Assembly: GCA_029259185.1 (NCBI GenBank)
Contig: JAPDJF010000037.1
Coordinates: 1 to 51,903 of the forward strand
Reading direction: 5' to 3'
Length of the DNA: 51,903 nucleotides
Source of the DNA: Hadesarchaea archaeon
GTDB lineage: Archaea; Hadarchaeota; Hadarchaeia; Hadarchaeales; WYZ-LMO6
A program made the position numbers and the translations under genes. Shown here piece by piece: positions 35,541 to 51,903 of the stretch; positions within the stretch are counted from its first letter, which is position 1, and each line of letters begins with the position of its first letter. The notes under the pieces were generated by a model that worked only from the letters and a program-made list of their open reading frames with translations, ran no database searches and was not told where the DNA came from.

Positions 35541-35547
35541 GATCTCC

Positions 35548-37245: not shown

Positions 37246-37266
37246 ATGCGCCACCTCCAATTTAAT

Positions 37267-37674
37267 CTATTTCAAAACTTTCTTTAACTCGTTGTCAAGG
37301 TGGTCTTTCCCACGCTTTTTTATTTCTTTTATGAGTTCCCTCACAGGAGCGTCCAAGGGAACACCGTATGAAGCCAGTATGCTCACGATCTTCGATGGGT
37401 CGAGATAGGGTAAGCTCGAAACCTCTGCCCTCGATTCCTCGGCTTGCGATCCCGGCTCGTTCCCCTCAGCTCTAACCTCTTCCCTTTTCACATCTTTGCC
37501 CCTCTTGTGCTCGGGCTCCTTCGGAGGAATATCTGGCTCTGATTTTGGCTCGAACAAAACAACCATCCGATTGCCGCCCAGCCTTTTGATGTACCTCTCC
37601 TGCTCCGGAGTTATCCTAGCCTCCTCGCTTAGCTCACAGTAGTACTCCGATCCCGTTTCACTATCCTCCCCCAT
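37267..37674 (-). CDS. hypothetical protein between the two arlI genes
   Basis: ~135-aa charged ORF with a GGAGGTG RBS, tightly packed in the arl operon. Confidence 0.65.
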   Translation of the reverse strand: MGEDSETGSEYYCELSEEARITPEQERYIKRLGGNRMVVLFEPKSEPDIPPKEPEHKRGKDVKREEVRAEGNEPGSQAEESRAEVSSLPYLDPSKIVSILASYGVPLDAPVRELIKEIKKRGKDHLDNELKKVLK

Positions 37675-37692
37675 TTTTTTCACCTCCCTTTT

Positions 37693-39369
37693 TCAATCTA
37701 ACAATTTGAATGGTAACCCCCTCAACCCCTCCCGCTGGTATCTCCTTATTATGTTGAGGGTATCCGCATAGCTCACCATATCTTTCCTAACGGCCGTCCT
37801 GATGACCGAGGCCCTTCTCCCCAACTCCTCGTAGATCTCCCTAGGATCCGAGTATCCCATGGAGGGTGCGACCTTTTCCTCTAGGATGTAGGAGTTATAC
37901 TTTCCCAGAAATCTTATCACATCGTTTATCGGATCGAAGTCAAAGACCAGTCGAGTCACTATCCCCTGGAAGTGCTTTGAGTATCCTTCTATCTCGTGGA
38001 CCGAGGTAACCCTTCTCATCTCCCTCCCCCGCATCTTGACGAAATTCTGAAACACGCACACGTTGAGGTTCCCGAAGAAAGCCTCTGGAACGTTCAATGG
38101 TTTACCCGTGAAGCGGTGGACGAGCGACACGATATTACCCGCGTGGAAGGTGAAGAGGGTGGGGTGACCCGTCTGCATCGCTTGGAAGACGTTGAATCCC
38201 TCTCTCCCCCTCACCTCACCTACTATTATGTTGTCCGGGCGACACCTCAGCGATGCCACTATTAGATCGAAGAGCGCGACGCTTCCCTCCCCTCCCCTGT
38301 CCCGGGTGAGGAGCCTCTGCCATGCCTCGTGGGGTGGTCTTATTTCCAGCGTGTCCTCGACCGTAACGATCTTGTGATACTCAGGGATGAAAGCCGTTAT
38401 CGCGTTCAGGGTCGAAGTCTTCCCGGCCGCCGTCTCACCGCACACCGCGATCGACTGGTTATTCTCCACGCACAGCCAGAGATAAGCCGCCAGCTCCGGA
38501 CTCATCGTCCCGAACTTCACGAGTTGAAAGGCTGAGAGGGGAATTTTTTCGAACTGTCGGATGGTGATCGAGGGGCCACCTATCGAGACATCGTCTGAAT
38601 AAACCACGTTTAGCCTAGAACCATCTGGAAGAGTGGTATCCACGATCGGTGAAGCATCGCTCGCCGGTTTCCCCATGCGCTCGGTTATCGATCTCAGCCA
38701 CCGCTTGTACTCGTCTTCCGATTCGAAGCCAACGTTAGTGCTCATCATCCCATAGATCTTGTTGTCCACATGAACGTCATGCGGACCGAACACGTGGATG
38801 TCCTCGTTCGTCTTGTCTTTCAAGAGGGGGTCGAGGGGTCCCATTCCCACTATGTCCCTCTTGAGGTGATAGAGGAATCTGTGATAGGTCTCCTCGGAGA
38901 GGACGAACTTCCTGTTCTTCCGGAAGAGGCCCCCACGCTCCTCCCCGACCGAGACGACTTGGCTGAACAGCTCCTCCAGATCCGACTCTAACTTTTTCTT
39001 CACCGAGGTGGAAAATGCTCGCTCGAATATCTCGTCCCTTATCGCCCGATAGAGTTCCAAATCTTCGGCTCGCAGTCTGGGCTCTATGACGTAGTAGGTT
39101 GAATCTATTCCCCTCCCCTCCTTATGGAGGTGGGAAAACACCATTCCCTCCGTTCGATAGATTATGTCTGTTTTTTCGGATCTGTATCGCTTAAACTCCT
39201 CCTGCGTTTCAGGCTTCTTCACCAGTTCAGGATAAACTCCAGTCTTCCGATGGAACTCCTCTAGGTGGAGCCGGAGGTGCTCGTACCTATCCGCGAGCTC
39301 CTTGAGCTCTCTCGAGAGTCCCCTCATCTCCCCCAGTTCCATCGATCCACGGATCCCCCTCACGAACAT
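37693..39369 (-). CDS. arlI: archaellum motor ATPase ArlI (FlaI), copy B
   Basis: Walker A GETAAGKTS, VEDT.E Asp box, LRCRPDNIIVGEVRG, QAMQTGH..TFHA, NSYILEEK. Confidence 0.92.
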   Translation of the reverse strand: MFVRGIRGSMELGEMRGLSRELKELADRYEHLRLHLEEFHRKTGVYPELVKKPETQEEFKRYRSEKTDIIYRTEGMVFSHLHKEGRGIDSTYYVIEPRLRAEDLELYRAIRDEIFERAFSTSVKKKLESDLEELFSQVVSVGEERGGLFRKNRKFVLSEETYHRFLYHLKRDIVGMGPLDPLLKDKTNEDIHVFGPHDVHVDNKIYGMMSTNVGFESEDEYKRWLRSITERMGKPASDASPIVDTTLPDGSRLNVVYSDDVSIGGPSITIRQFEKIPLSAFQLVKFGTMSPELAAYLWLCVENNQSIAVCGETAAGKTSTLNAITAFIPEYHKIVTVEDTLEIRPPHEAWQRLLTRDRGGEGSVALFDLIVASLRCRPDNIIVGEVRGREGFNVFQAMQTGHPTLFTFHAGNIVSLVHRFTGKPLNVPEAFFGNLNVCVFQNFVKMRGREMRRVTSVHEIEGYSKHFQGIVTRLVFDFDPINDVIRFLGKYNSYILEEKVAPSMGYSDPREIYEELGRRASVIRTAVRKDMVSYADTLNIIRRYQREGLRGLPFKLLD

Positions 39370-39377
39370 TCAACCAC

Positions 39378-40100
39378 CTAGATGACCGCCCTGGCTTCAA
39401 TTATGATGCCCACATCCGCCCTCACGGAGTACCCGATGGAATCCCCGACTTGCTTGCCCATACCCGAGAATCTCCTCACTTCCATCATCCTCCGGATCTC
39501 CCCACCCACGTCGAACATCTTCAGTTGGAGGTACACGTCGGCCACAGATCTGAATGGCGAGAGCGCATCCTCACTCAAGTTTGTGGGATCTATCGTCATG
39601 ACCACGGTTTTCTCTTTACGGATCAAATTCCTCAAGAAACTCACTATCTGAATCGAGATATCCTCCTCCTTGTCTTGCCTGAAGAGAGTTTCGAACTTCT
39701 CATCGTTCCGCAAGATCTGGTCGAACGCATCTATGATCGTCACGTCTCCGTTCCACATCCTATCTGCATTCAAGAGTTTCTCTACGTAGCTTCCCCCGGG
39801 TTGGGGGACGAACGTTATGAACGCGAACCTGTGAGCAAGGATGTGGTCAGTCATGTCGTAATTCAGAGATTTCATCTGTCTCAGGAAGCTCATCAAATCA
39901 AGCTCTGGAGTCACATAACACACGTAGTTGCCCATCTCACACAGCCCGTAGGCGAACCTCTGGCAGAGGACACTTTTCCCGGCGCCGTATTTCCCCTCGA
40001 TCAAAACTATGCTTCCCTGGGGCAATCCACCGCCGAGCTTCCTATTCAGACCGTCCCTTTCTTCCAACCCGAGTGAGAAGAGTTTCTTTCCACCCCTCAT
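39378..40100 (-). CDS. arlH: archaellum RecA/KaiC-like ATP-binding protein ArlH (FlaH)
   Basis: LGGGLP.GSIVLIEG.YGAGKS.LCQRF.YG, IID, GII.E.R.V C-terminus. Confidence 0.92.
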   Translation of the reverse strand: MRGGKKLFSLGLEERDGLNRKLGGGLPQGSIVLIEGKYGAGKSVLCQRFAYGLCEMGNYVCYVTPELDLMSFLRQMKSLNYDMTDHILAHRFAFITFVPQPGGSYVEKLLNADRMWNGDVTIIDAFDQILRNDEKFETLFRQDKEEDISIQIVSFLRNLIRKEKTVVMTIDPTNLSEDALSPFRSVADVYLQLKMFDVGGEIRRMMEVRRFSGMGKQVGDSIGYSVRADVGIIIEARAVI

Positions 40101-40113
40101 TTCACCCTCTCCC

Positions 40114-40578
40114 TTACAATCTAAATTTTATCGAGTCTTCCGTATTAAACGTCACAACCTTGGCCTTGTGATCTCCCGCTCCGAGATAATCCTGGCTATA
40201 ACTCGTCACTATTCTTAAGACGCTGTGAGGCACCCAGCGGTTCTCCCCAATAACCTCCATCGACCATATGTTCTCTTCCGCAACATACTCCCCGTCCAGG
40301 AACACGTCCACGTACTTCTTTTCGTTCTCAAGGGTGATTGACCCGATGTTCTTCACGTAAAGTACGACAACGTTCTCCCCATTGACATTTTCGATCATGT
40401 ACTCGGGATCGTTTATGATCGAGATATCGGCATCGAGCTGGGTGGATAACCGGTAGCCTTTATCCCTGATCGAATTTGAAATCATGTCCGCACTTTGGAG
40501 GACCACTCCCCCGATACCAACGGCTATGCCCAGCGACACTATGAGCACTATCAAATTCGTTATAGAAGTTTCGGCCAT
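40114..40578 (-). CDS. arlG: archaellum stator protein ArlG (FlaG)
   Basis: N-terminal TM helix, DISIINDP, LYVKNIG, DVFLDG, W.P. Confidence 0.85.
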   Translation of the reverse strand: MAETSITNLIVLIVSLGIAVGIGGVVLQSADMISNSIRDKGYRLSTQLDADISIINDPEYMIENVNGENVVVLYVKNIGSITLENEKKYVDVFLDGEYVAEENIWSMEVIGENRWVPHSVLRIVTSYSQDYLGAGDHKAKVVTFNTEDSIKFRL

Positions 40579-40582
40579 TTCC

Positions 40583-41044
40583 TCACCCCAGCGTGATTTC
40601 AGTGGTTGAATCCGAGATCCCGTACTCGGTCACTACTTTGACCGCGTTCGGCGGGGTCGGAAAGATGTTTTCGGTGGTGATGGTCAGATTCTCGTCGGGG
40701 AGCCAAACGCTCGTCTGGAGCCCGTCCACCGTCCTGCTCCTCAGGTTCTCCTCCACTATCAGCTTCCCATCCACAAGCAGATCCGTTTTGGATGCGTCCA
40801 ACTCCACGGACCCCGTGTTTCTGACCACTACTACCAAGTTGTTCTCGACCGAACTGTGAACCACGTTCTCGATCTCGATATCCGTTTGAATCCTGTTCAC
40901 CACCCTCTCGTCCCGCTTCTCTTGGGCCACCGCGAGCTGATCGTAAACCCTATCCAACACGTCGACTAGGATGGTGACGGAAGCCAGTAGCGCCAGCACC
41001 ACTATCCCAAGCGCGATCGGCGCACCGTAACCCCTTTCCTCCAT
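40583..41044 (-). CDS. arlF: archaellum stator protein ArlF (FlaF)
   Basis: N-terminal TM helix, TDIEI, V.NTG, LLVDG, W.P.E.L.I, VKVVTEYG. Confidence 0.85.
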   Translation of the reverse strand: MEERGYGAPIALGIVVLALLASVTILVDVLDRVYDQLAVAQEKRDERVVNRIQTDIEIENVVHSSVENNLVVVVRNTGSVELDASKTDLLVDGKLIVEENLRSRTVDGLQTSVWLPDENLTITTENIFPTPPNAVKVVTEYGISDSTTEITLG

Positions 41045-41132
41045 ATTCCCACCTTGTAAACTCTATTTTACTATAAGTAAATTCAACTTAATAAAACTGA
41101 GGGTAAGCTTGCTTGTGGTATGGGGGGTATGG

Positions 41133-41612
41133 CTAGGCCCTCTTCAAGCCAGCTTTCTTCATCACTTCCTCTTTTACCCCTTCGCCTATCCGTTCCGAAA
41201 GCTCTAAGATGTAGCTGAGGGAACGGAGGTGATCCTCCACGTCGAGCCTCCGAACCCCCACTTCCTGCGCCGCTTGGGGCTCACCCACCTTGTATTCTCT
41301 GTCCCCCACCCTTATCTCAGCCGAAAACTTCTTCCGGCCCATGAAGAAACTCTTCCCGTAGGTGAGCAGGCGATCCCTGACAGCTTGGTCTATCCAACCC
41401 AGCTCCACGTAACTGGAAAGGGCGTCCAGAACCCCGTCTAAGTTCGTCCTTGAGAACATGAAATCCATCCACTCGATGATCACCACTTCCTTCCTCGGGT
41501 CACCCTCGATGTCGGAGAGACGCAGGTAGGGCTTTTCCACACGGCCTTCCACGGGTCGACTCTCTTCCTCCCCCAAAGGTGAAAGTTGTCCTTCCAAATA
41601 CTCGGGCATCAT
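41133..41612 (-). CDS. archaellum accessory protein ArlD/E (FlaD/E domain)
   Basis: KPYL, IEWMDF, LDAL..YV.LGWI, L.VEDHLRSL.YI. Confidence 0.85.
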   Translation of the reverse strand: MMPEYLEGQLSPLGEEESRPVEGRVEKPYLRLSDIEGDPRKEVVIIEWMDFMFSRTNLDGVLDALSSYVELGWIDQAVRDRLLTYGKSFFMGRKKFSAEIRVGDREYKVGEPQAAQEVGVRRLDVEDHLRSLSYILELSERIGEGVKEEVMKKAGLKRA

Positions 41613-42382
41613 GACCCCTCCTCTACGAATTTACAATTATACCTCCACTGCTTATGGGTAGGATCCCACTTCCTCTCCAATATCTCCACCACCTTCCCTT
41701 CGGGCGACAGGGCCCTTTCTCCCACCCCCCACTTGGGTTCTGGTCTCTCTTCAATTTTTTCACCCTCCTCGACTTTTTCGCCCTCATGGAAAGCCTTCAT
41801 GTACTCCTCCACTATTTCCTCTTCCATCCTTTTTTCCTCAGGTTTTCCAGCGACTGGCACCCCTGTCCTCACCAGTCTCTCCAGCTCGGCTATCTTGTTC
41901 TCCAGTTCTTCGATTTTCTTGTAAGGTACCCCCTCCCCGCCAACGAACTCCTTGAAGATCTCAAACACATCCTCCCCGAGCAAATCTTTGTCTATCTCCT
42001 TGATACCCTCATCGAACGGATTGATCCCCCGAAAAACTATTTCATACACCTTGAACAGTTTTTGCATCCTTTCCCCGAACTTGGAAACCTCATCTCGCAA
42101 CTCCCGGTTCTCGGTCTCGAGCATCGACACGCTAGAAGTCAGCCTCTCGATCCGCTCGCTCAGCTCTCTTATCTCCCCCTTCCAACTCGGTTCTGGGCCT
42201 TCTTCTGTTTCTCCCCTCCCCCCCTCAGCCACCGAGACCTCTGGCTCCTCCTCAAGCTCGAGCAACCCCGTTTCCGACTCATCCTCCACCGTTTCCTCAA
42301 GCAACCCGGATTCTTCCTCGGTGGGACCTATCTCCGGACCTTTGCTCACTTTCTTCAGAATTTTGTCTAGCAGGGGGGCCAT
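41609..42382 (-). CDS. arlC: archaellum accessory protein ArlC (FlaC-like) with acidic and coiled-coil regions
   Basis: Coiled coil followed by L...YE.V..GINPF; first gene of the arl operon. Confidence 0.75.
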   Translation of the reverse strand: MAPLLDKILKKVSKGPEIGPTEEESGLLEETVEDESETGLLELEEEPEVSVAEGGRGETEEGPEPSWKGEIRELSERIERLTSSVSMLETENRELRDEVSKFGERMQKLFKVYEIVFRGINPFDEGIKEIDKDLLGEDVFEIFKEFVGGEGVPYKKIEELENKIAELERLVRTGVPVAGKPEEKRMEEEIVEEYMKAFHEGEKVEEGEKIEERPEPKWGVGERALSPEGKVVEILERKWDPTHKQWRYNCKFVEEGS

Positions 42383-42504
42383 GGGTCTTCCGTTTCAAGT
42401 TTTGCCTTCATCCTTTATAAATGTTAGGTATAATTCACAAAAATGATATTTTTTTTTAATAGAAATTTATAAACCATTAGTAAAATATAATTTAGTGAAA
42501 CCTG
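42383..42504. promoter_or_regulatory. AT-rich divergent promoter region between arlC and the archaellin gene
   Basis: Strongly AT-rich, with TTTATAAA TATA-like boxes (e.g. 42414-42421, 42466-42473). Confidence 0.6.
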
Positions 42505-43134
42505 ATGGACATTCGCGGGGTAGTGGGCATTGGCACCCTCATCATCTTCATAGCGATGATCTTGGTAGCCAGTACTGCGGCTGGAGTAATAATAAGAATA
42601 AGCGGGAGTCTGCAAGCCCAGGCCAGAGCCACGGGGAGGGAGGCCATCCAACAAGTTTCCACCGGAATAAGGATTTTGAGCGCGGTGGGGAGGGTATCGA
42701 CCGATTACGAAAACATTGATAACATCGAGTTCATAGCCAAACTTTGGGTAGGGAGTCCCCCCATCGATCTCACCGAGATGACCATAAGCTACCTCTCCGA
42801 GACAACCCAGATCTACCTCACCATTGGGAAGTACGACAACACCCTCATGGTATTTGAAAACCTCGAGGCACTAGAAAACCACTGGAACGATCTAGATGCC
42901 AACGAGTTCGCGATAGTTAAAATCCAGAACATCAGCGGGACGGATCCCGGGATATTGGGAAAAGGGGATGTGGTGGGGATATGGATCAACGTTCAAAAGA
43001 TCGAAGAGCCCCAAGCCCTTCAATCCCAAGACTCGGCAGTTTTAACTTTTGTGCCCGAAATCGGGTTTGAAACGAGAATAAGGGTGAGCGTTCCTACCCT
43101 GATCCCTGGAGATAAGGTGGTGTCATTGTACTGA
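42505..43134 (+). CDS. arlB: archaellin
   Basis: Class III signal peptide [32 protein letters not shown]....QVSTG, GS.PIDL. Confidence 0.95.
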
Positions 43135-43255
43135 AAACCATTTCTGATTCTAAATAAACAGATTATCTCACTTCAGGTTTATAAATTTTTCTTAACTAAA
43201 TTTGAAATGACTAAAGTTTAAATACTTTTAGTTAATTGATATTTACTTAGAGAAT

Positions 43256-43675
43256 ATGAACAAGACAAAAAACGTATTTGAGCACTGGACTGAAAAGAAA
43301 AACGGTGGCGAAAACAAAGAATTCACTGAGGAGATTTCGGTGCTCGAACCCCCCCAGAGTGTAGAACTGGGGAGCCTCATAAAGAAGACACTCGGGCCGC
43401 TGGCTGATGACTATTCGATTCGTATCCTATCGGCTACCCAGGGCAAGGGCAAGACCATCCGCGAACTCAGCAGGGAACTGGACATTCCCATAGCCACGTG
43501 TTACAGGAGGATAACCGAACTGCTGGAGGCATCCCTCCTCACGACGGTGGGGAGAAAGCTAACCCAAGAGGGTAAGCGGGCTAGCGTCCTCAAATCGAAC
43601 ATCGCAAATATCGAAGTTTCATTCAGTGCTGAGGACGGGAAGTTGAAAGTGGTCATCAAACACTCCCGGACGTAA
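43256..43675 (+). CDS. winged helix-turn-helix transcriptional regulator (ArsR-like)
   Basis: LADDYSIRILSAT...KTIRELSRELDIPIATCYRRI.EL...LL. Confidence 0.8.
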   Translation: MNKTKNVFEHWTEKKNGGENKEFTEEISVLEPPQSVELGSLIKKTLGPLADDYSIRILSATQGKGKTIRELSRELDIPIATCYRRITELLEASLLTTVGRKLTQEGKRASVLKSNIANIEVSFSAEDGKLKVVIKHSRT

Positions 43676-43718
43676 ACATTGATAGACTTCGAGGACAATA
43701 GGCGAACTGGGGGGTTCG

Positions 43719-45632
43719 ATGAAGCGAGTTCTTAAGCCAGGCTCAGGTGGAGCTAGCCGAGAGAAAGTGAAGGATGCTATAACCGCTATAATAGTGGGAT
43801 TGAGTCAAGACGGTAAAATCGTGTTCATCAATCGGAGGTGCGAGGAACTCCTAGGTTACAGGGAAGAAGAGATACTCGGGCGCTTCTTCTGGGATTTCTC
43901 TCCGGAGCACAGCAAGAAAAGGGTGGAGGAGGACTTCTCGAACATCGGAGGTGCTGTCGCTTCTTATGAGACCCCCTGGAACACGTGTGGGGGTGAGGAG
44001 CACCTCATCAGGTGGGAATTCATTCAATTCAAGGGATCTGAGGGACACGTACGGATGATCATCGCAGTGGGAAATGACCTCACCGCGAGCGAGATGATCG
44101 AGAGGAAACTTGGAGAGCTCGAACTCCTCTACCATGGCCTGACCAGCGAATCATGGATGGGGATTTGTGCCGTCCACCAGACCTCGGAGGGGACAGTTCT
44201 GAGATCCGTCAACCCGAGGATGGAAGAGATATTCGGCTACGGGAGGGGGGAGCTGGAAGGGAAAAAGTTGGAGGACCTAATTCACCCCCAAGACATCTCC
44301 CTGGTGGAGTCACAGATCCAAGACGCTTGGCGTGGGGTCGGGAAAACCGTCCAAACGAGGGGCAGGAAGAAAAATGGTGAAATCGTGTGGATCGAAAACC
44401 GGATGATCCAAGTCCCCCAGGGGGAGCAGCGTGCGCTCATTTGGATGGTTCAAGATGTACATTCCCTTAAAGTGGCTGAAGAGCAGCTGAAAGAGAAGAA
44501 AATTTACGAAAACATCGTTGCCCGCGCCAAAATCGGGATCGGCGTGCTTCAGAACGGGAAAGTCCTCTACATGAACGAAGGGTTGGCTGAAATCTTCGAG
44601 TGCTCGAAACGAGAACTCGAGAAACTCGGTTTCGCCCACTTCGTTCACCCGGAGGACAAGGGGGAGATAGAGACCGCGAGGGAAATGGTGAAGAAGGGGA
44701 TCCCGTACACCTCAAGCTACCGAGCGATCACCAAAGAGGGGAAAGTGAAGTACATCCATCTCCACGTGTCACCAGTGGAGTCCGACGGGGGACAAGCTGT
44801 CTTGTTAATCGTGGAGGACATAACGGAACAGAAGGAAACAGAGAGAAAACTTCAAGATAGGGAGGCTGAGCTGCGGCGAGCATACACCTACCTGAGGGAG
44901 GCCGAGATCGAGCTGAGGAAGAAAACCGAAGAACTGAGGAGAGCAAATGAGATGCGGGCCGAATTCTTGGATCTCCTAGCCCACGAGATAAAATCCTATC
45001 TGACCCCGATAGAGGTGTACGTGGACTCGATCAAAGAGGGGGAATTCGGGGAAGTATCTCTCACCCAGCGGAGGAGGCTCCAAGAGATAACTGATAAGAT
45101 AAAGAAAATCGATAGGGTAATAGAAGACACGCTCGATCTGTCTAGGATCGAAGCCGACATCGTGAAGATCTCAAGGGAATCCGTGTTCCTCCCGGATATA
45201 ATCGAATCTATAATCGAGGAATTCAGGCCCCAGATAGAGGACAAGAACCAGGAGGTAACCATGAGGGCTCCGGAGAAACTCCCGGTGGTGGAGGGGGACC
45301 CTCGCCTCTTAGAGAAGGTTTTCAGGAACCTCATTTCCAACGCTATTGCGTATACACCCGCTGGGGGCAAGATCACGATCGAATTGTCCGAAGAGAGGGA
45401 GTGTGTGCTCACCAAGGTCTCTGATACGGGCGTGGGAATTCCGGCGGATGAACTTGATAAAATATTCCAGAAGTTCTACCGCGGGAGGGACAGGAAAACT
45501 CGGGGCTTGGGAATAGGATTGGCCCTAGCTAGGCATTTCGTCGAACTCCATGGCGGCCGGATATGGGCTGAAAGTGCACTTGGGGTGGGGAGCACCTTTT
45601 ACGTGAAACTCCCGAAAAACCCCCAGCGGTAA
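43719..45632 (+). CDS. cytoplasmic sensor histidine kinase with three PAS domains
   Basis: Three PAS repeats (FINRR.EELLGY, VNPRMEEIFGY..IHPQD, MNEG...FVHPED), H-box AHEIKSYL, NLISNA, DTGVGI, FQKFY, GLGIGL; no TM segments. Confidence 0.92.
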   Translation: MKRVLKPGSGGASREKVKDAITAIIVGLSQDGKIVFINRRCEELLGYREEEILGRFFWDFSPEHSKKRVEEDFSNIGGAVASYETPWNTCGGEEHLIRWEFIQFKGSEGHVRMIIAVGNDLTASEMIERKLGELELLYHGLTSESWMGICAVHQTSEGTVLRSVNPRMEEIFGYGRGELEGKKLEDLIHPQDISLVESQIQDAWRGVGKTVQTRGRKKNGEIVWIENRMIQVPQGEQRALIWMVQDVHSLKVAEEQLKEKKIYENIVARAKIGIGVLQNGKVLYMNEGLAEIFECSKRELEKLGFAHFVHPEDKGEIETAREMVKKGIPYTSSYRAITKEGKVKYIHLHVSPVESDGGQAVLLIVEDITEQKETERKLQDREAELRRAYTYLREAEIELRKKTEELRRANEMRAEFLDLLAHEIKSYLTPIEVYVDSIKEGEFGEVSLTQRRRLQEITDKIKKIDRVIEDTLDLSRIEADIVKISRESVFLPDIIESIIEEFRPQIEDKNQEVTMRAPEKLPVVEGDPRLLEKVFRNLISNAIAYTPAGGKITIELSEERECVLTKVSDTGVGIPADELDKIFQKFYRGRDRKTRGLGIGLALARHFVELHGGRIWAESALGVGSTFYVKLPKNPQR

Positions 45633-45699
45633 TCCTCAAACCCTTCCACGACACCTTCCAGGAGCGACCTCCTCCCCTCGCTTTTGCAGGGGGGGCTCG

Positions 45700-45807
45700 T
45701 CGGTTTTCCAAGGCGTTGGGTTCGGGGTGGCCCCCTCCCCACCTCCCGGGAGATTTTCGGCTCTCATCCCCAGCTCTCGCAGGGAACTTCCCGCCGACAG
45801 AGTTAAA
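45700..45807 (+). repeat. intergenic direct repeat, copy 1
   Basis: 45700-45730 is identical to 51538-51568 (31 nt), and 45754-45796 is identical to 51612-51654 (43 nt). Confidence 0.9.
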
Positions 45808-45831
45808 GCCCCCCTCTCCATTCTTAAATGT

Positions 45832-46299
45832 ATGGCACTGCCCCTAACCCGGGAGTGGTTTGAATCGATTTTGAGAGAACTGGACTCGAAATCGTGCCTC
45901 GGATTCGGAGACGAGTCTGTGTGGGCGTCCATCACGGGGCTGTTATCCAGACTTTCGAAAGATGCGGTGGCGAGGATCGAGGACGAACTCACGAGGGAGG
46001 GGATGAACAAAGAAAATTTTCGGAGAATGAGGGAAGAGGACAGGCTGGATCTGGTGGTTAACTTCAAAGGAGGAAAGATCGAGGAGTTTAGATTAGCTCA
46101 ACCCTCAGACACCCCGACCATTAGGATAAGCTGTGACTACGAGTCCCTTGAGAAACTATGGAGGGGGGAAGAAGATATCGTCTGGATGGTGTTGATGGCT
46201 AGGATCAAGATCAGGGGAAAGCTCAAGAACTTCACGAGACGCATAGATGAATACACTAATTTAATATCTGCTCTCGTGTCTAATACTGATGTAAATTGA
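45832..46299 (+). CDS. SCP2 sterol/lipid-binding domain protein
   Basis: C-terminal ISCDYESLEKLWRGEEDIVWMVLMARIKIRGKL matches the SCP2 pattern; probable ATG at 45832. Confidence 0.65.
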   Translation: MALPLTREWFESILRELDSKSCLGFGDESVWASITGLLSRLSKDAVARIEDELTREGMNKENFRRMREEDRLDLVVNFKGGKIEEFRLAQPSDTPTIRISCDYESLEKLWRGEEDIVWMVLMARIKIRGKLKNFTRRIDEYTNLISALVSNTDVN

Positions 46300-46309
46300 A
46301 GGGAACCCG

Positions 46310-47788
46310 ATGGAAGAGGGATTCTCCAAAGAAGAAAGCTTACGGAAAAGAACCGCATGGGAAAAACGGTTCAACGAGCTAGGGATAAACATAGCTTGGA
46401 AAAGGGTGGAAAAATTCATCAGCCCTTACAAAGGCATCGTCCCGATGAATGCTGAGATATTCATGGTTTTCCCGGCTTGGGCAACGATTTTCAGGGAGAT
46501 AGGCATGACCCCTGAGGCTTGGGAGAGACTGAAATATGAGAACTTCGTCGAATGGGCCTACCGGGTAGACCAAGCTGTCAAAACTACGAACCGCGTTCTC
46601 AAGGAACCCCCTCCCCCCCAAGAGATGTACGAGGTTCATAACCTCTGCTACCTCAGCCACCCCCCTGCATACCTTTGTACTCCGGAGGTCGGTAAACACA
46701 CATGCGAGATGCTTTACGGGAAGTATGCCACCGTGGAGTACGTGCACGTAGACGATTTCTCGAGGGAGATATACTGGATAAACGGATACCATAACGACGA
46801 GGGGTTTCCCGTTCACCAATGGACGGTGGCCGTAGACGAGAAGCTGTGCGATCACTTCGACGAAGAAGACGAAAAAGCTTTCCTCACGAGCAATAGCGCT
46901 TGGACGGGAGGGACTAGGGAAGAACTGAACGAGCGCTTGGATCGAATGGAGTTCACGATAAGGGAACGCCTGAGGGACCTCCCAAAAGTTCTCTGGGACC
47001 CGCCCGAATGGGGACGCGCGACGTGGGGGATGATCAGGGATTTCCGAATAGACGAACTCTCAAGATGGGCATACGGAACTTTGTACGCGTCTTGCGTTTC
47101 GACTTATATCAGCTCCATAGCTCAGAGCGCCCTGATGAGCGCGGAGTTCTTCACCTACCTATATTATGGATTAAAAACGACCGAAGTGCTGGGGCTTGAT
47201 TACCTCCTCTTCTCTTATGTCCCCATGCCCAACATGCTCACCGAGATGCTCACCCTTCCCCAAGAAACGTTCGTCAAACGAATGAGTGAGTTCTTCCTCG
47301 GAGGATACAACGCCATACACAAACATGCGTGTGGAGAACGAAAGATCCCCCTCCTCTTCAGGATAAAGAAGTCGCTGTTCAAGTACGGTCAGTTCTATCC
47401 CCACTACAAGGGGATAGTCCCCCCCATGGTGATGGCCAGAACGATTCCTCCAAGCTTCACGACCACCAATGTGAACATGTTCCTGGAAACCCCCCCGAGC
47501 AAGGAGTTCTGGGAGTTGCTTGAGAGCGAGGCCGATGCGGACAGAAAAACTGGTGAGATACCGTCCGTGGAGGAAACGAGCAGATTCAAATTCCTCCTCG
47601 ATCCATCGGTGGAGCCACTCAAACCCAGCGATTTCCCACCGATAGACTGGAACGTCGGACAAATATGGCCTTTCGACATCACGAGGGAGAAGATGGAGAT
47701 AATGGTGGAGGAGGGGTACGACGGGTCGGGCAAAGACATCGAGTATTACAGCGAACTGGCGGATAAAAAAATGGGTAAAAGGAACTAA
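46310..47788 (+). CDS. hypothetical protein (492 aa, aromatic-rich)
   Basis: Long ORF 10 nt downstream of the SCP2 gene; no family recognised. Confidence 0.85.
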   Translation: MEEGFSKEESLRKRTAWEKRFNELGINIAWKRVEKFISPYKGIVPMNAEIFMVFPAWATIFREIGMTPEAWERLKYENFVEWAYRVDQAVKTTNRVLKEPPPPQEMYEVHNLCYLSHPPAYLCTPEVGKHTCEMLYGKYATVEYVHVDDFSREIYWINGYHNDEGFPVHQWTVAVDEKLCDHFDEEDEKAFLTSNSAWTGGTREELNERLDRMEFTIRERLRDLPKVLWDPPEWGRATWGMIRDFRIDELSRWAYGTLYASCVSTYISSIAQSALMSAEFFTYLYYGLKTTEVLGLDYLLFSYVPMPNMLTEMLTLPQETFVKRMSEFFLGGYNAIHKHACGERKIPLLFRIKKSLFKYGQFYPHYKGIVPPMVMARTIPPSFTTTNVNMFLETPPSKEFWELLESEADADRKTGEIPSVEETSRFKFLLDPSVEPLKPSDFPPIDWNVGQIWPFDITREKMEIMVEEGYDGSGKDIEYYSELADKKMGKRN

Positions 47789-49395
47789 CGCGTCGACGCG
47801 CGCATACGCTCTTTCTTGAGGAGTTTTTTCCTCTGAAGCATCCCTTCAGGACTCCGGGGGATGTAATCAACCAACTCTATTTCCCGGATCTTTTTATATC
47901 CTGCAACATTGCTCCCCACGAGCCTGTAGAGCTCCTCCTCCTTGATCTCTGCCCCCTCCCTGAGCTTCACGAAAGCTTTGGGGATCTCCCCAGCCACGGG
48001 ATCCGGCTTACCCACTACCGCACAGTCATCCACCGCTGGATGTCCTCTGAGCACGGACTCCAGCTCTGCGGGTGAAACGGTGAACCCCATGTACTTAATG
48101 ATTTCCTTCTTCCGGTCGACGAAGTATAGGTATCCATTCGCATCCCTTCTCCCCAGATCCCCGGTGTAGAGCCATCCACCTCGGAGCACCTTCGCGGTTT
48201 CCTTGGGCCTCCTCCAGTAACCCTTCATCACTTGAGGTCCCCTGACGATGATTTCTCCGACCACAGCGGTGGGGAGTTCTCTCGTGCCCGTTTCGGGATC
48301 GACTATTTTGATTTGAGTATCGGGCAATGGGGGACCGATCGAATCTACGATGGACTGGCTCAACGGATTGACTGCGACGAAGGGCGAGGCCTCTGAAAGA
48401 CCATAAGCTTGGATCACCTGAATGCCCGTGAGCTTTTGGAACTTTCTGACGATCTCGGGTATGCTAGGCATGGCGGCCTGCTGGATGAAACGGACGGAAG
48501 AGAGGTCACGCCTCTGGAGGAGCTCAGGGTAGCTTGAGAGGAAAGTTATCACAGGCATCACGGTTGAAGAGAAAGTACACCTGAACCTCTCGACGAGTTC
48601 CAAGAACTTCTCTATCTCAAATCTCTTCTGGATGACTATAGACATCCCCATCCGAACTGGTGTGCAGACGTTTGCCATCAACCCGTAGATGTGATAAAAG
48701 GGGAGGTGAGCCAGAACAACGTCGGTGGAAGTGAACTCAAGCCCCGGCATGCTGGAGTATTGGATGGTGTTGCTGACCAAGTTAGAGTGAGTAAGCATAC
48801 AACCCTTAACGCCCTCAGAGGTACCGGTGTACTGGATGACCGCTAGATCCTCGGATGGATTTATTTTGAGTTCCGGCAAATTCGGTGGAGTTTTGAGAAG
48901 CTCCTCGAAAGAACGAGTATCCGGGTACCTCCCACCGACCACGATCACATCCCTCAGCCCCCGGAGTTCTCCCCTCACCGTCTTCAAGACCATATAACTT
49001 TCCTCATCCACGATCACCGCCACGGCCCCCGAATCCTCCAGCTGATACCTCACCTCCCGGCCCTTGTAAGTCGGGTTCATCGGTGTAACCGTGGCTCCCG
49101 TTTTCAGAATGGCGAAAAAGGAGATTATCCACTCAGGAGTGTTCCACATCTGCAACCCCACAACATCTCCTTTTTTTACCCCCTGATGAAGCAAGGCCGT
49201 AGCGAGGCGGTCGACGAGCGCATTCAGCTCCCCGAAGGTTAGCCTCTTCGGGTAGAGGATGAATGGTTTATTCGGGTGCGCCCCCGCGGTGTCATCCAAC
49301 ATCTGGAAGAGGGGAATTTCTGGATATGGCCAGAACGAAGGCTGGTAATATTTACCGTATCGCCTGCCGCCCACGGAACCAAAACTTGCTCCCAA
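47785..49395 (-). CDS. long-chain-fatty-acid--CoA ligase-like protein (ANL superfamily) with degenerate catalytic motifs
   Basis: LPFYHIYG, YGLSE, GEI.VRGPQVMKGYW, TGDLG, VDRKKE and P.ELE.VL..HPAV present. The P-loop reads YTGTSEGVKG and A10 reads PRSPEGM. Confidence 0.9.
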   Translation of the reverse strand: MGASFGSVGGRRYGKYYQPSFWPYPEIPLFQMLDDTAGAHPNKPFILYPKRLTFGELNALVDRLATALLHQGVKKGDVVGLQMWNTPEWIISFFAILKTGATVTPMNPTYKGREVRYQLEDSGAVAVIVDEESYMVLKTVRGELRGLRDVIVVGGRYPDTRSFEELLKTPPNLPELKINPSEDLAVIQYTGTSEGVKGCMLTHSNLVSNTIQYSSMPGLEFTSTDVVLAHLPFYHIYGLMANVCTPVRMGMSIVIQKRFEIEKFLELVERFRCTFSSTVMPVITFLSSYPELLQRRDLSSVRFIQQAAMPSIPEIVRKFQKLTGIQVIQAYGLSEASPFVAVNPLSQSIVDSIGPPLPDTQIKIVDPETGTRELPTAVVGEIIVRGPQVMKGYWRRPKETAKVLRGGWLYTGDLGRRDANGYLYFVDRKKEIIKYMGFTVSPAELESVLRGHPAVDDCAVVGKPDPVAGEIPKAFVKLREGAEIKEEELYRLVGSNVAGYKKIREIELVDYIPRSPEGMLQRKKLLKKERMRASTR

Positions 49396-49417
49396 ATGTC
49401 TTCAACCCGTTAGAAAA

Positions 49418-50320
49418 TTGCCCACGATTTTTATACACTTTTTGATACGACCATCGATCAACTCTGATAACGATGCCCCAAAGCTCAATAATAGGACATT
49501 CCATATCTTCGTATGGGGGAACTTGATCCTAGATCTGAGAGAAGAGTTGCCGATCATCCTTTCTTCAGCATCTGTGCTCGTTGCCTTCATCGCCATTACA
49601 TTCTTCACTTCTTCTCCCCCACCCGAGATCATGCTCGTGGTGTTCGCATCCTTGGCGTGCACCATATTGGTTTTCTTCCTCGTCCTGTGGAAGCAAGAAG
49701 AAGAAACCGTGGAGTCTGGAGGAAGCGAAGAAGAATGGACTCGTATACTCGCTGAGCTCAGGACCGGGAAGAAAAAAGCTAGGAAACCTGGGACGGGAGC
49801 CGAAGTGGAGGAGTCCAAACCCACAGACGATCCTCGAGAGCTGATCCGAGGAGTAGAGCTAGAAGGATGGAGAGTCGTTGAAGAGGACGAAGTGCCCCCA
49901 GAGGATGTGATATGGGGAAGGATAAGCCTTTCCGAATCAGTGACCATCCCGGACTTAGGATTCGAGAAGGGATTCATGAAAATCCTTGAGAAAGAGGGGA
50001 GAAGAACCGCTTTCTGTATCCTCAAGTTCTCCTCCCACGAAAGAGCGAAAGCCGCGTTCGCGGGCATCACCGAAGAATGGAGGAAAGAAAGCAAGTATCC
50101 GGTATCCGCTGGTGAGGAGGCCGTTGGGGTGTACTTGGAATCCGAGGGGGTGGATGGAGTCTTCTTCAGGCAGGCGAATCTATTGGTGTTGATCTTGGTG
50201 GGTGACCCTCGGGGAGTGTCTCAGGGGGACTCAACCCAGTTCGTCCAGCTCCTGAAGAGGCTTCCTCCTCCGAGAGAAGAATCCATGAAGGAAGAGATTG
50301 AAACGCTCCTTAAAGAGTGA
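49418..50320 (+). CDS. hypothetical membrane protein (two N-terminal TM helices plus soluble domain); true start probably downstream of 49418
   Basis: Hydrophobic segments IILSSASVLVAFIAITFF and IMLVVFASLACTILVFFLVLW, followed by a charged domain. Confidence 0.7.
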   Translation: MPTIFIHFLIRPSINSDNDAPKLNNRTFHIFVWGNLILDLREELPIILSSASVLVAFIAITFFTSSPPPEIMLVVFASLACTILVFFLVLWKQEEETVESGGSEEEWTRILAELRTGKKKARKPGTGAEVEESKPTDDPRELIRGVELEGWRVVEEDEVPPEDVIWGRISLSESVTIPDLGFEKGFMKILEKEGRRTAFCILKFSSHERAKAAFAGITEEWRKESKYPVSAGEEAVGVYLESEGVDGVFFRQANLLVLILVGDPRGVSQGDSTQFVQLLKRLPPPREESMKEEIETLLKE

Positions 50321-50327
50321 AAGGTTC

Positions 50328-51452
50328 TCATCGGGGGATCCACACAACCTTCCCCCACTTACCCGCGTGTTGCCTCTTGATTTGTTCTAGAATCCTCGCC
50401 GCATTTCTGCCCATTTCAGTTAGGAAATACTTTTTCTCCTCATCCTTTCTGATCAACCCGCCAGACTCAAGCTTCTGGAGGTGGAAACTGAGCTTCGGGG
50501 AATCGCTTATCCCTATTCGCCGAGCCAACGTGGTGAAACTTATCCCATCCTCGAAACTCAGCTGGGAGATTATTTTCCTCCTCAGCTGGTTGGAGAGTGA
50601 ACTCGAGATGATCCCCACCGGTACCTCGGATATTAAGTGATGGAGTTCCTCCAGTTCGACCCGGTCCATGTTCTTGGGATCCCCGGATAGGATGAGAACG
50701 ACATTCGAAGACGCGAGCCCTTCCTCAACACCCTCCAAAAAATCCCTCACCAAAGGGAGGGGGTTTTTGTCCAGTAGATAATCGATGTCGCCCATCAAGA
50801 TCACCGAGTCTGGATTGTTCGAAGCGAATCCAAGGATGAGCTCACGGAGTTCATCGAGCCTCTGAGGGTGGTGTCCCCCCTCCTCCTCCGAAAGCAAAAC
50901 GTAGGTTACACCATCTAACCCATACCTCTCTCGGAGCTCCCTCGCATTTCTCCTCGACACGACCAACCCCCGCCTCCCACCTTTCATCAAGTTTTTGAAC
51001 TCCTCAAACGCATCCTTCATTTCCTCCTCCGCCGGTGCCGAAACGAGAGCCCCCCGCCGTTTCTCAAACTCGATATCCTCGAGGGCCCCCAGGACGGTAG
51101 ATTTTATGTCTTTCAATTCGAACGGTTTCCGTATGTAGTCGGCCGCGCCCTCCTTCATTGCCTCAACCGCGGTATCCACCGACGCATAGGCGGTTAGCAT
51201 TATGACATAGGTATCAGGGCTCATCTTCTTGGTCCTTTTCAGAAGCTCCACACCATCCATCCCAGGCATCTTCACGTCAAAAAATGCTATATCTATCCTC
51301 TTCTCCCTGAGTTTTTTCAGTGCATCTTCTCCCGAGAAGGAGGTGATCACTTCATAGCCTTCTCCCTCGAGTGCTGCCTTTATGGCCTCCGCTATGGAGG
51401 GGTCATCGTCTACGACCAGTATCTTGGGTTTCCCTAATCCCTTACTCAACAT
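50328..51452 (-). CDS. response regulator: receiver + DUF835-like domain + winged HTH
   Basis: ILVVDDD, D.KMPGMDG (phospho-Asp), MLTAY, KPF. Central GLVVSR.N...VI...IDYL...N segment is DUF835-like; C-terminal LRRKII..L...SFT.L......LSFHL.KL...GLI. Probable ATG at 51452. Confidence 0.85.
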   Translation of the reverse strand: MLSKGLGKPKILVVDDDPSIAEAIKAALEGEGYEVITSFSGEDALKKLREKRIDIAFFDVKMPGMDGVELLKRTKKMSPDTYVIMLTAYASVDTAVEAMKEGAADYIRKPFELKDIKSTVLGALEDIEFEKRRGALVSAPAEEEMKDAFEEFKNLMKGGRRGLVVSRRNARELRERYGLDGVTYVLLSEEEGGHHPQRLDELRELILGFASNNPDSVILMGDIDYLLDKNPLPLVRDFLEGVEEGLASSNVVLILSGDPKNMDRVELEELHHLISEVPVGIISSSLSNQLRRKIISQLSFEDGISFTTLARRIGISDSPKLSFHLQKLESGGLIRKDEEKKYFLTEMGRNAARILEQIKRQHAGKWGKVVWIPR

Positions 51453-51537
51453 TTCTTTAGTTAAGGTTGTTTTCCTTTTATAAAAATCTACCCTTTCCAT
51501 CCCTAAAAACCATAGAAAAGAGATAGCTGAAAAGTCA

Positions 51538-51670
51538 TCGGTTTTCCAAGGCGTTGGGTTCGGGGTGGTCCTCTCCACCTCCCGGAAGAAATTGGAGGGG
51601 AAATAACGTGGTTTTCGGCTCTCATCCCCAGCTCTCGCAGGGAACTTCCCGCCGGGAGAGTTAGAGTTAA
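51538..51670 (+). repeat. intergenic direct repeat, copy 2 (with ~20-nt insertion)
   Basis: Matches 45700-45807 in two identical blocks of 31 and 43 nt. Confidence 0.9.
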
Positions 51671-51697
51671 AAAAGGAGGGAGTGACTTAGACTCCCC
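51669..51697 (-). terminator. hairpin plus T-tract after the second archaellin gene
   Basis: Minus strand gggagt-ctaagtc-actccc, then tcc and TTTTTT, right after the TGA stop. Confidence 0.5.
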
Positions 51698-51700
51698 TCA

Positions 51701-51903
51701 TCAGAGCTCCGTCACAGCCAGCCCATCGAGAGCCGCGGGTACGAGGAGGACCTCCCGGGTTTCTATCCCGACCTTGGGGATTATCTTCACCCAGGCCTTC
51801 TCGTCCTCTTGAAGGGCACCGCCCACGTCATCCTCTATTATCTTGATGTTGATCCATATCTCCGCCATCGCCCCCGTGGTGGAGAGGATGTATGGCTTCG
51901 CCC
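51701..51903 (-). CDS. arlB: archaellin, 3' part (second copy); start lies beyond the window end
   Basis: Manual translation AKPYILSTTGAMAEIWINIKIIEDDVGGALQEDEKAWVKIIPKVGIETREVLLVPAALDGLAVTEL* aligns with the C-terminus of the 42505 archaellin ([12 protein letters not shown]......[10 protein letters not shown]...VP). Confidence 0.8.
   Translation of the reverse strand, partial: AKPYILSTTGAMAEIWINIKIIEDDVGGALQEDEKAWVKIIPKVGIETREVLLVPAALDGLAVTEL

Follow-up and report, generated by a model that had tools for sequence, protein, structure and literature searches.

Positions 43256-51452 of a contig from a Hadesarchaea archaeon (GenBank assembly GCA_029259185.1, contig JAPDJF010000037.1) encode a small winged helix-turn-helix (wHTH) regulator, a soluble histidine kinase, a response regulator and a protein with two transmembrane segments (2-TM protein), which together are a conserved archaellum-locus module of this lineage. 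The window, i.e. the whole stretch of 51,903 bases analyzed, is the entire contig C6 of the genome (G000; 1,267,874 bases in 54 contigs, 94.9% complete) of a small alkane-oxidizing archaeon. The sequence evidence supports a Che-independent phosphorelay for archaellum genes. Three further genes, encoding an SCP2-like protein, a 492-aa protein and a ligase-like protein, lie between the kinase and the regulator and look like a later insertion of alkane-metabolism genes. As a whole, the region is best explained as a composite of two unrelated parts, an archaellum two-component module and an inserted catabolic module, and we regard this explanation as rather probable. The first-pass annotation of this DNA had listed the same genes between two archaellin genes, all of which are present according to open reading frames (ORFs), Pfam and NCBIfam. 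It had also proposed that a non-Che system may couple lipid or acyl-CoA availability to the archaellum. The tie between non-Che signaling and the archaellum is supported, based on synteny in all five arl-positive genomes and on a shared promoter palindrome, while the sensing of lipid or acyl-CoA is not.

A conserved signaling module in archaellum loci

Genes were called from the ORF listing, families were assigned by Pfam and NCBIfam scans, and the translations were checked for hydrophobic segments. The signaling module has four members in the window:

43256-43675 (+): small wHTH regulator, 139 aa, first gene of the conserved block (HTH_20, E 6.3e-10)
43719-45632 (+): soluble 3xPAS-HisKA-HATPase histidine kinase, 637 aa (HisKA 8.5e-9, HATPase_c 5.5e-30, three PAS stretches)
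49418-50320 (+): 2-TM protein with two hydrophobic segments and a soluble C-terminal domain, a member of the conserved block
50328-51500 (-): response regulator REC-DUF835(iKaiC)-DUF7347/HTH_20 (REC 1.5e-31; DUF835 55.8 bits, cut-off 33.1)

Pfam and hydrophobicity agree with the labels these four had received at first pass. No hydrophobic segments were found in the kinase, the regulator or the 492-aa protein; the two of the 2-TM protein are also present in its orthologs in the related genomes G017 and G023.

The phylum comparison set comprises 66 genomes, with six from the taxonomic family of G000 and five from its sister genus. The presence of an archaellum was scored by the curated NCBIfam FlaI (ArlI) model above its cut-off of 550 bits, which is exceeded in five of the 66 genomes (G000, G017, G014, G023 and G008), each with two ArlI copies. 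All five have a full-length ortholog of the regulator in the arl locus, on the same contig as arl genes, in three different gene orders. A search of all 66 genomes identified full-length regulator orthologs with 43-56% identity in G025, G017, G023, G014, G008, G016 and G050. The regulator is thus present in only three (G025, G016 and G050) of the 61 genomes without ArlI over the cut-off; G025 is 65% complete, and its 3.9-kb contig consists of the kinase, the regulator and the 2-TM protein. Seven loci around the regulator in relatives (L117-L123) were fetched and searched by tblastn with the window proteins, and their ORFs were scanned with Pfam. Those of the arl-positive relatives are arranged as follows:

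G017: arlI-138aa-arlI-H-G-F-D/E-C (-), wHTH-kinase-regulator (+), 2-TM (-), arlB (+)
G023: arlD/E and arlC (-), two arlB, wHTH, kinase and regulator (+), 2-TM (-), arlB (+)
G014 and G008: arlF-G-H-I-(unknown)-I-J, then the regulator on the same strand, then a REC-only gene

In G017 and G023, the genes for the wHTH protein, the kinase, the regulator and the 2-TM protein therefore form an uninterrupted run between arlC and arlB. The wHTH copies at this position are 57% (G017) and 75% (G023) identical to that of the window, and the kinase orthologs (48-50% identity) are located directly upstream of the regulator in G017, G023 and G025. In the genus whose genomes have 5-15 REC matches each, this particular regulator is found inside the arl locus in four of the seven genomes searched. 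The five genomes of the sister genus gave no match to the kinase, no match to the regulator and no ArlI over the cut-off.

Beyond the regulator/arlB region, the arl-positive relatives have a REC-only gene and an HD_3 gene (L117 13851-16896; L123 9080-12622; L118 10754-11926). An acetyl-CoA synthetase gene comes next after these in G017 and G008.

The only two-component system of a genome in which CheW and MCP were not found

The first-pass annotation had noted that the window is devoid of che genes, which is correct, and had raised the concern that a che cluster could lie beyond it. The profiles listed as CheW PF01584 and MCPsignal PF00015 have no matches anywhere in the 94.9%-complete genome, with control genomes being positive, so that this concern is answered within the limits of 95% completeness. 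CheW is found in three of the 66 phylum genomes.

The Response_reg profile matches once in G000, in the window regulator, and the window kinase is the sole HisKA-type kinase of the genome. HATPase_c matches the kinase and one other frame (528 aa, on C12), and a tblastn search of G000 for a second copy of the kinase found none. The single REC match and the single HisKA-type kinase indicate that the window pair is the only two-component system of the cell. Together with the adjacent, co-directional orthologs in G017, G023 and G025, this also identifies the two proteins as a cognate kinase/regulator pair.

The kinase has an H-box (AHEIKS) as well as N and G boxes, as seen by eye in the translation. 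The REC match of the regulator spans 110 of 111 profile positions and DUF835 (PF05763) covers residues 189-312. The receiver residues, also located by eye, are DD, D (FFDVKMPG), T (MLTAY) and K (IRKPF), which we take to be the acidic pocket, the phospho-acceptor aspartate and the conserved threonine and lysine, respectively. The pair thus has the components of a classical two-component system (HisKA/HATPase_c with the histidine, REC with Asp, Thr and Lys), and phosphotransfer between them is predicted.

The DUF835 domain scores above the cut-off in five of the regulator orthologs and below it in the G008 copy (26.7 bits). The architecture appears to be rare, since a word-index search identified only five other 90%-identity clusters with the REC-DUF835-wHTH form. 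A wider contig search with the regulator gave, among the 80 loci listed, matches to the REC domain only (query residues ~1-166), all of them bacterial, and contributed nothing on gene context.

The 139-aa wHTH protein has only weak, sub-threshold matches in NCBIfam, none of 25 database relatives is named EarA, and BLASTP found no similarity between it and the wHTH region of the regulator. For the 2-TM protein, all language-model neighbors are at or below 0.85 without an informative family, and the word-index search returned its own cluster alone. The true start of its gene is probably later than 49418, as the stored gene call is 248 aa long and the ORF begins with an AT-rich, promoter-like stretch.

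A candidate operator at archaellin promoters

When the 130-base regions preceding the archaellin genes, the arlC operon and the wHTH gene were aligned, a palindrome became apparent directly 3' of the TATA box. In the window, it precedes the first archaellin gene:

42477-42498 (+): operator-like 22-bp palindrome, 3' of the TATA box (42466-42473) and 5' of the arlB1 start codon
42505-43134 (+): archaellin gene arlB1 (PF01917, E 1.7e-31, 110.1 bits)

The perfect copy before the second arlB of G023, TTAGTAAAAT-NN-ATTTTACTAA, served as the pattern, and matches were scored at up to three mismatches. The window contains a single match, at the arlB1 promoter, and a match of any kind was obtained in none of 100 shuffles. 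The G023 locus has three matches, including the source copy and a copy with one mismatch before the wHTH gene (three in 0/200 shuffles). The G017 locus has two, both in the intergenic region between arlC and the wHTH gene (two in 0/200 shuffles). The sites are thus located in the promoters of arlB, arlC|wHTH and wHTH. A site with two mismatches is also present in the G014 locus. When up to four mismatches are allowed, G000 contains three sites, two of which are inside the arl locus. The distribution of the palindrome over the start regions of archaellin genes and of the module's own operon looks like an autoregulated regulon and makes it a candidate operator.

The four-mismatch copy within the arl operon is found at 41053-41074, in the gap between arlF and arlD/E.

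The genes between kinase and regulator

The three genes that separate the kinase from the 2-TM/regulator pair form the inserted module:

45832-46299 (+): putative SCP2-fold protein, 155 aa (language-model neighbors, AF2 model, Foldseek, VIA)
46310-47788 (+): 492-aa protein from an undescribed family associated with Acr archaea (homolog searches, context)
47785-49395 (-): ANL-superfamily ligase-like protein, 536 aa (AMP-binding 3.7e-88, 296.3 bits; AMP-binding_C 66.1 bits)

The SCP2 label given at first pass is not borne out by sequence profiles, and has modest backing at the level of the fold. No match to the 155-aa protein was found in Pfam (E<=0.01), in NCBIfam or in a profile search of PDB sequences, and hhalign against Pfam-positive SCP2 neighbors was negative (probability 0.2). 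Among its 30 language-model neighbors, 26 are SCP2 clusters, at 0.92. The AF2 model is of moderate quality (pLDDT 65.9). Foldseek gave four matches at E<=1e-3 (6e-4 to 9e-4, TM ~0.36), namely human SCP2 (8af2) and the alkylsulfatase-family entries 4axh A, 4axh B and 7tl5, whose C-terminal domain we take to have the SCP2 fold. These are followed by a long series of SCP2 entries. In VIA, the rows with Z of 4.1-5.4 correspond either to SCP2 proteins or to the C-terminal parts of YjcS and of Eis/GNAT-type acetyltransferases. These lines of evidence (language model, Foldseek and VIA), each of them modest, agree in supporting an SCP2 fold for the predicted structure. The gene is best read as encoding 155 aa; an alternative GTG frame of 190 aa extends into the repeat described below.

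The 492-aa protein, called unknown at first pass, indeed matches no Pfam or NCBIfam family and lacks a clear counterpart in the PDB. Its AF2 model is confident (pLDDT 89.8, pTM 0.89); Foldseek gave no PDB match at E<=1e-3 and VIA none at Z>=5. The top eight VIA rows are SCP2 proteins (Z 3.4-4.7, 101-118 residues aligned), a lead at most. The family is present in all six genomes of the taxonomic family, with five to eight matches each, and was found in none of the 35 other genomes of the order, including the nine of the family that holds the arl-positive relatives. A HMMER search of 1.84 billion representatives identified 33 proteins at E<=1e-3, seven of them at E<=1e-10, and none of the 18 relatives scanned has a Pfam family. 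The named relatives are hypothetical proteins of Hadarchaeales and, at 39% identity, of Candidatus Methanoliparum, besides a remote 392-aa protein from a Helarchaeota MAG. The family is confined to archaea that bear Acr.

The module is one of five paralogous loci in G000, and the window copy is the one away from Acr genes. The other four are as follows (X, the member of the 492-aa family):

C38 (L015, 1607-5901): acrB-acrG-X-acrA, between mcrG- and mcrA-type genes; also G001:C4 (L023)
C13: acrA..ADP-forming acyl-CoA synthetase-SCP2-like-X-SCP2-aldehyde:ferredoxin oxidoreductase (AOR); also G001:C1
C7: X after ligase-like, ABC exporter, nitroreductase, enoyl-CoA hydratase and 3-hydroxyacyl-CoA dehydrogenase genes; also G001:C1 end
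C36: X adjoining carbon-nitrogen hydrolase and ATP-grasp_5 genes

G001, from the sister genus, repeats these contexts gene for gene. An SCP2-like gene lies 5' of the 492-aa gene throughout a subfamily with ~60% identity, i.e. in the window, on C13 and in seven sister-genus loci (L002-L005 and L009-L011; three weak matches). In the tree of the 492-aa family, the window copy belongs to this SCP2-linked subfamily, on a long branch (0.38) at an open fork with the C13 copy and two sister-genus lineages. By elimination, it may correspond to the second copy of the sister genus, which is located among acyl-CoA dehydrogenase genes and away from signaling genes.

The SCP2-like protein is predicted to bind the 492-aa protein. 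The model of the complex scores 0.85, compared to 0.33 for the best of three controls, with at least 94% contact agreement between runs and a partner pLDDT of at least 84. Among solved complexes, 116 of 157 attained this score mark, as did two of 215 mismatched pairs; these counts hold only roughly here, since custom alignments were used.

The first-pass annotation had described the catalytic motifs of the ligase as broken, and this holds. The P-loop (A3) and the A10 motif with its catalytic lysine are defining features of ANL enzymes. In an alignment with six paralogs and relatives, the P-loop of the window protein reads YTGTSEGV-KG, with a one-residue deletion, and a methionine replaces the A10 lysine (PEGMLQR); canonical ligase paralogs of the same genome have FTGGTTGVPKG and TEKVFKR, or HTSGTTAKPKG and SGKIMRR. 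Its top-scoring NCBIfam model reaches 407.6 bits, short of the 476-bit cut-off. No relative in the sister genus exceeds 45% identity. The window protein has the deleted P-loop residue and the missing A10 lysine in common with a clade (C7 of the same genome, G001 and G005) whose sequenced members adjoin a 492-aa-family gene, as does the best ligase match in each of the five sister-genus genomes. A degenerate ligase-like gene is thus paired with a 492-aa-family gene in all six genomes of the family.

The first-pass annotation had named a lack of linkage between the lipid genes and arl or kinase/regulator genes in relatives as the observation that would speak against a lipid-sensing role. In the loci of G017, G023, G014 and G008, the lipid genes were absent, and tblastn found no match to the SCP2-like protein, the 492-aa protein or a close ligase in any of the seven regulator loci (L117-L123). 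Since these genes are absent from the loci of relatives and are located near Acr, AOR or beta-oxidation genes elsewhere, lipid sensing is not supported, and they are better read with those genes than as a sensor. The conversion of alkyl-CoM to acyl-CoA in these archaea is described as unknown in the accessible text of two reports (PMC10811742, PMC11297162), which makes the 492-aa family, with its predicted SCP2-like partner and its constant degenerate ligase-like neighbor, a candidate for that chemistry or for the handling of hydrophobic substrates. Literature searches on Methanoliparum, sterol carrier protein and alkyl-CoM found no description of an SCP2-like/492-aa module.

Repeat copies and rearrangement of the block

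The rearranged block is bounded by two copies of a dispersed repeat, of which the second is followed by the end of another archaellin gene:

45693-45809 (+): dispersed repeat copy A, left boundary of the rearranged block (repeat search)
51531-51670 (+): dispersed repeat copy B, right boundary of the rearranged block (repeat search)
51701-51903 (-): 3' end of a second archaellin gene (arlB2), cut by the contig end; 66 codons (51701-51901), assigned by alignment with the archaellins of relatives

The regulator comes immediately after the kinase in G017, G023 and G025 and is convergent with the 2-TM gene. The latter is divergent from arlB in G017 and G023; the G025 contig ends before that point. 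The order in the window is kinase, repeat copy A, the three inserted genes, the inverted 2-TM/regulator pair, repeat copy B and arlB2 (-). Both rearrangement breakpoints therefore coincide with repeat copies, which suggests that the SCP2-like/492-aa/ligase module landed between the kinase and the regulator by a rearrangement with the repeat at its breakpoints.

The repeat is intergenic, 115-140 nt in length, and occurs in two variants that differ by a 22-nt insert. G000 has six strong and about eight weak copies; the strong copies outside the window are C2:62808-62922, C2:71783-71923, C9:6744-6878 and C29:2710-2825. The copies precede unrelated genes, with a gene start 11-89 nt downstream in four of the six strong ones. 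An Rfam scan of 42000-51903, which includes the window copies, gave one sub-threshold CRISPR-DR row and nothing for the repeat. The possibility of an att pair peculiar to the block was rejected, because the strong and weak copies occur genome-wide before unrelated genes.

Proposed mechanism and alternative explanations

A mechanism consistent with these data can be outlined. The PAS domains of the kinase would sense a cytoplasmic cue, and the kinase would phosphorylate the regulator. The 2-TM protein, which has a conserved soluble domain, might pass this cue on to the kinase. The regulator, the small wHTH protein, or both, would bind the palindrome over the start regions of the archaellin genes and the module's own operon, and binding would switch archaellum synthesis on or off without a Che system. 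The inserted module would have no role as a sensor; its probable task is to handle long hydrophobic chains during the oxidation of alkanes or fatty acids, and the SCP2-like and 492-aa proteins would act as a complex.

Several observations weigh against this explanation. A single genus accounts for four of the five arl-positive genomes, which reduces the synteny to roughly two lineages with three arrangements; this is real, but not five-fold, support. In G016 and G050, which carry a 43%-identical regulator, the 11-13 kb fetched contain no arl gene and ArlI does not exceed its cut-off, indicating that the regulator family is not strictly tied to archaella. The palindrome was derived from the same promoters on which it was scored. 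Its window copy at arlB1 is weaker, with three mismatches, and before the wHTH gene of the window only a site with five mismatches was seen by eye. The genome-wide count of three sites at up to four mismatches is no higher than in block-shuffled genomes (1-5), so the total is not enriched and the placement alone is telling. Since the two repeat copies have the same orientation, they alone cannot account for the inverted 2-TM/regulator pair; at least two events are needed, the order of which is inferred. Insertion here rather than loss elsewhere rests on parsimony, and the window's 492-aa copy branches from an open fork of its family tree. Finally, the acetyl-CoA synthetase gene of G017 and G008 is of the AMP-forming type and is located 3-4 kb from the regulator, which could hint at a link to acyl metabolism.

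The finding in G016 and G050 would be expected if the two-component system were a general regulator of energy or redox state, or of other surface structures, and its position in the arl locus a historical accident. PAS kinases often sense general redox or energy cues, and a paralog of the soluble domain of the 2-TM protein resides on C16, away from the arl operon genes. However, the linkage persists through three gene orders, it is this regulator out of 5-15 REC matches per genome that sits in the arl locus in four of seven genomes, and the palindrome is common to the arlB promoters and the module's own promoter. We consider a general regulator unlikely.

The insertion could also have placed a copy of the alkane module under the archaellum regulon, such that motility and part of alkane catabolism are co-regulated in this species. 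The module now lies between genes that form one block in relatives, next to the cell's only two-component system, and an AT-rich region between the ligase-like and 2-TM genes resembles a divergent promoter. On the other hand, no palindrome at up to three mismatches is present within 45633-49500, the four other module copies of G000 are far from the locus, and the repeat copy directly 5' of the SCP2-like gene, which precedes unrelated genes elsewhere, may itself carry the SCP2-like promoter. Such a co-option appears improbable.

An extended version of the phosphorelay would act at two levels. The Pfam assignments identify ArlH as KaiC-like, and DUF835 is regarded as an inactivated KaiC-like domain in the accessible text of a census of archaeal two-component systems (PMC5847659), which makes a direct second action on the motor conceivable. 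The wHTH domains would then set archaellin transcription via the palindrome, DUF835 would dock in a phosphorylation-dependent manner on ArlH/ArlI and gate assembly or rotation, and in this one species the alkane module would belong to the same regulon. We give this scheme little credence.

The first-pass proposal, in which the SCP2-like, 492-aa and ligase-like proteins are a ligand-binding input by which lipid or acyl-CoA controls archaellum expression or activity, is very improbable. In its favor, the three genes sit among those of the sole two-component system in G000, the adenylation motifs of the ligase-like protein are lost, as might be the case in a protein that only binds its ligand, SCP2 folds (modestly supported here) bind acyl chains, and an acetyl-CoA synthetase gene is near the regulator in G017 and G008. 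Against it, tblastn found none of the three genes in the arl two-component loci of G017, G023, G014 and G008 (with the 492-aa family in 0/9 genomes of that family), where kinase and regulator of relatives adjoin they have no input genes between them, the other copies lie by Acr, AOR and beta-oxidation genes, also in sister-genus genomes where no kinase or regulator was found, and the degenerate ligase/492-aa pairing occurs in 6/6 family genomes regardless of signaling genes. The composite of an archaellum two-component module and a catabolic insertion thus remains our preferred explanation.

Comparison with known systems

The switching of archaellum expression is known in a few model archaea, through EarA, the Arn network and, more recently, the Qar and CsmR systems of Haloferax. 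We know of no work on archaellum control in Hadarchaeota. Like the Che system (CheA/W/Y/F with MCPs) located next to arl, the module is a REC phosphorelay associated with the archaellum. Unlike Che, it is found in a genome without detected CheW or MCP, its kinase is HisKA-type rather than CheA, and its regulator has a DNA-binding output.

The closest functional precedent is QarABC of Haloferax volcanii, a non-Che kinase/regulator system that governs motility and in which, according to the accessible text, deletion of the regulator alters the transcription of motility genes (PMC13464002). As in that case, a classical non-Che two-component system is tied to motility in an archaeon. The signal for QarABC is a quorum signal, and its host is a halophile equipped with Che as well (PMC13464002, accessible text), whereas the module described here is embedded in the arl locus of a Che-less archaeon. 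It also differs in the REC-DUF835-wHTH regulator and in the accompanying small wHTH and 2-TM proteins, a distinction drawn from the available description of QarABC rather than from its sequences.

The archaeal census lists 36 REC-DUF835 ("iKaiC") regulators in Methanomicrobia and Thermoplasmata (PMC5847659), with which the window regulator shares the succession of REC and DUF835. The portion of its table available to us contains REC-DUF835 and REC-PAS-PAS-DUF835, and the form with a C-terminal wHTH (DUF7347/HTH_20), as here, is not among them. That text states no link to the archaellum (no occurrence of "archaell"), whereas here the regulator is located inside the arl locus.

EarA, a small one-component activator, works at the promoter of the archaellin operon, next to BRE/TATA, where it binds 6-bp sites upstream of the BRE, as described in the accessible parts of two reports (PMC5512572, PMC10665913). 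The small wHTH protein resembles it in being a putative DNA-binding protein with a candidate site at an archaellin promoter near the TATA box. In contrast to the EarA sites 5' of the BRE, the candidate site here is a 22-bp palindrome 3' of the TATA box, and the wHTH protein is accompanied by a predicted phosphorelay.

Precedents therefore exist both for REC-DUF835 regulators and for the control of motility by a non-Che two-component system. What is new is the wHTH-bearing REC-DUF835 form, its placement in the arl locus of a Che-less lineage, where small wHTH and 2-TM proteins accompany it, and the candidate operator. Literature searches combining archaellum, two-component and DUF835 found no description of the signaling module. 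In the two culture papers on alkane-oxidizing Hadarchaeota that were searched, there is no mention of archaella or flagella nor, in one of them, of two-component systems. With one kinase, one regulator of rare architecture and a candidate operator, the compact module offers a testable model of Che-independent motility control.

Archaellum genes of the window

The remaining archaellum genes of the window form an operon upstream of arlB1, on the opposite strand:

33858-42382 (-): arl operon arlC-arlD/E-arlF-arlG-arlH-arlI-138-aa unknown-arlI-arlJ (Pfam FlaC_arch, Arch_fla_DE, Arch_flagellin, KaiC-type ATPase, T2SSE twice, T2SSF)

The two ArlI copies score 657.6 and 634.3 bits. They form a tandem pair (35548-39369, -) that flanks a 138-aa ORF of no known family. 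The same arlI-138aa-arlI trio is found in G017 and G014 (loci among L117, L119 and L123). In G008, a 193-aa ORF lies between the two arlI genes, and tblastn gave no match between it and the 138-aa protein of the window.

The 66-aa fragment of arlB2 has no match in the Pfam scan. It aligns at 46-54% with the C-termini of archaellins of G017 and G023 (tblastn), and a fragment with 94% identity to it opens contig C4. Archaellin gene fragments are located at four contig ends of G000 (C6 end, C4 start, C35 end and C16 start), which implies at least three archaellin genes and a locus split by the assembly; archaellin paralogs evidently break the assembly. Contig C16, which could continue C6, carries the paralog of the soluble domain of the 2-TM protein and an S26-type peptidase gene.

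A 13-mer containing the arlB1 TATA box (42463-42475, +) recurs exactly once, at 43176-43188 (-), just 3' of the arlB1 stop codon and facing back into the gene. This opposite-strand copy may be an antisense promoter.

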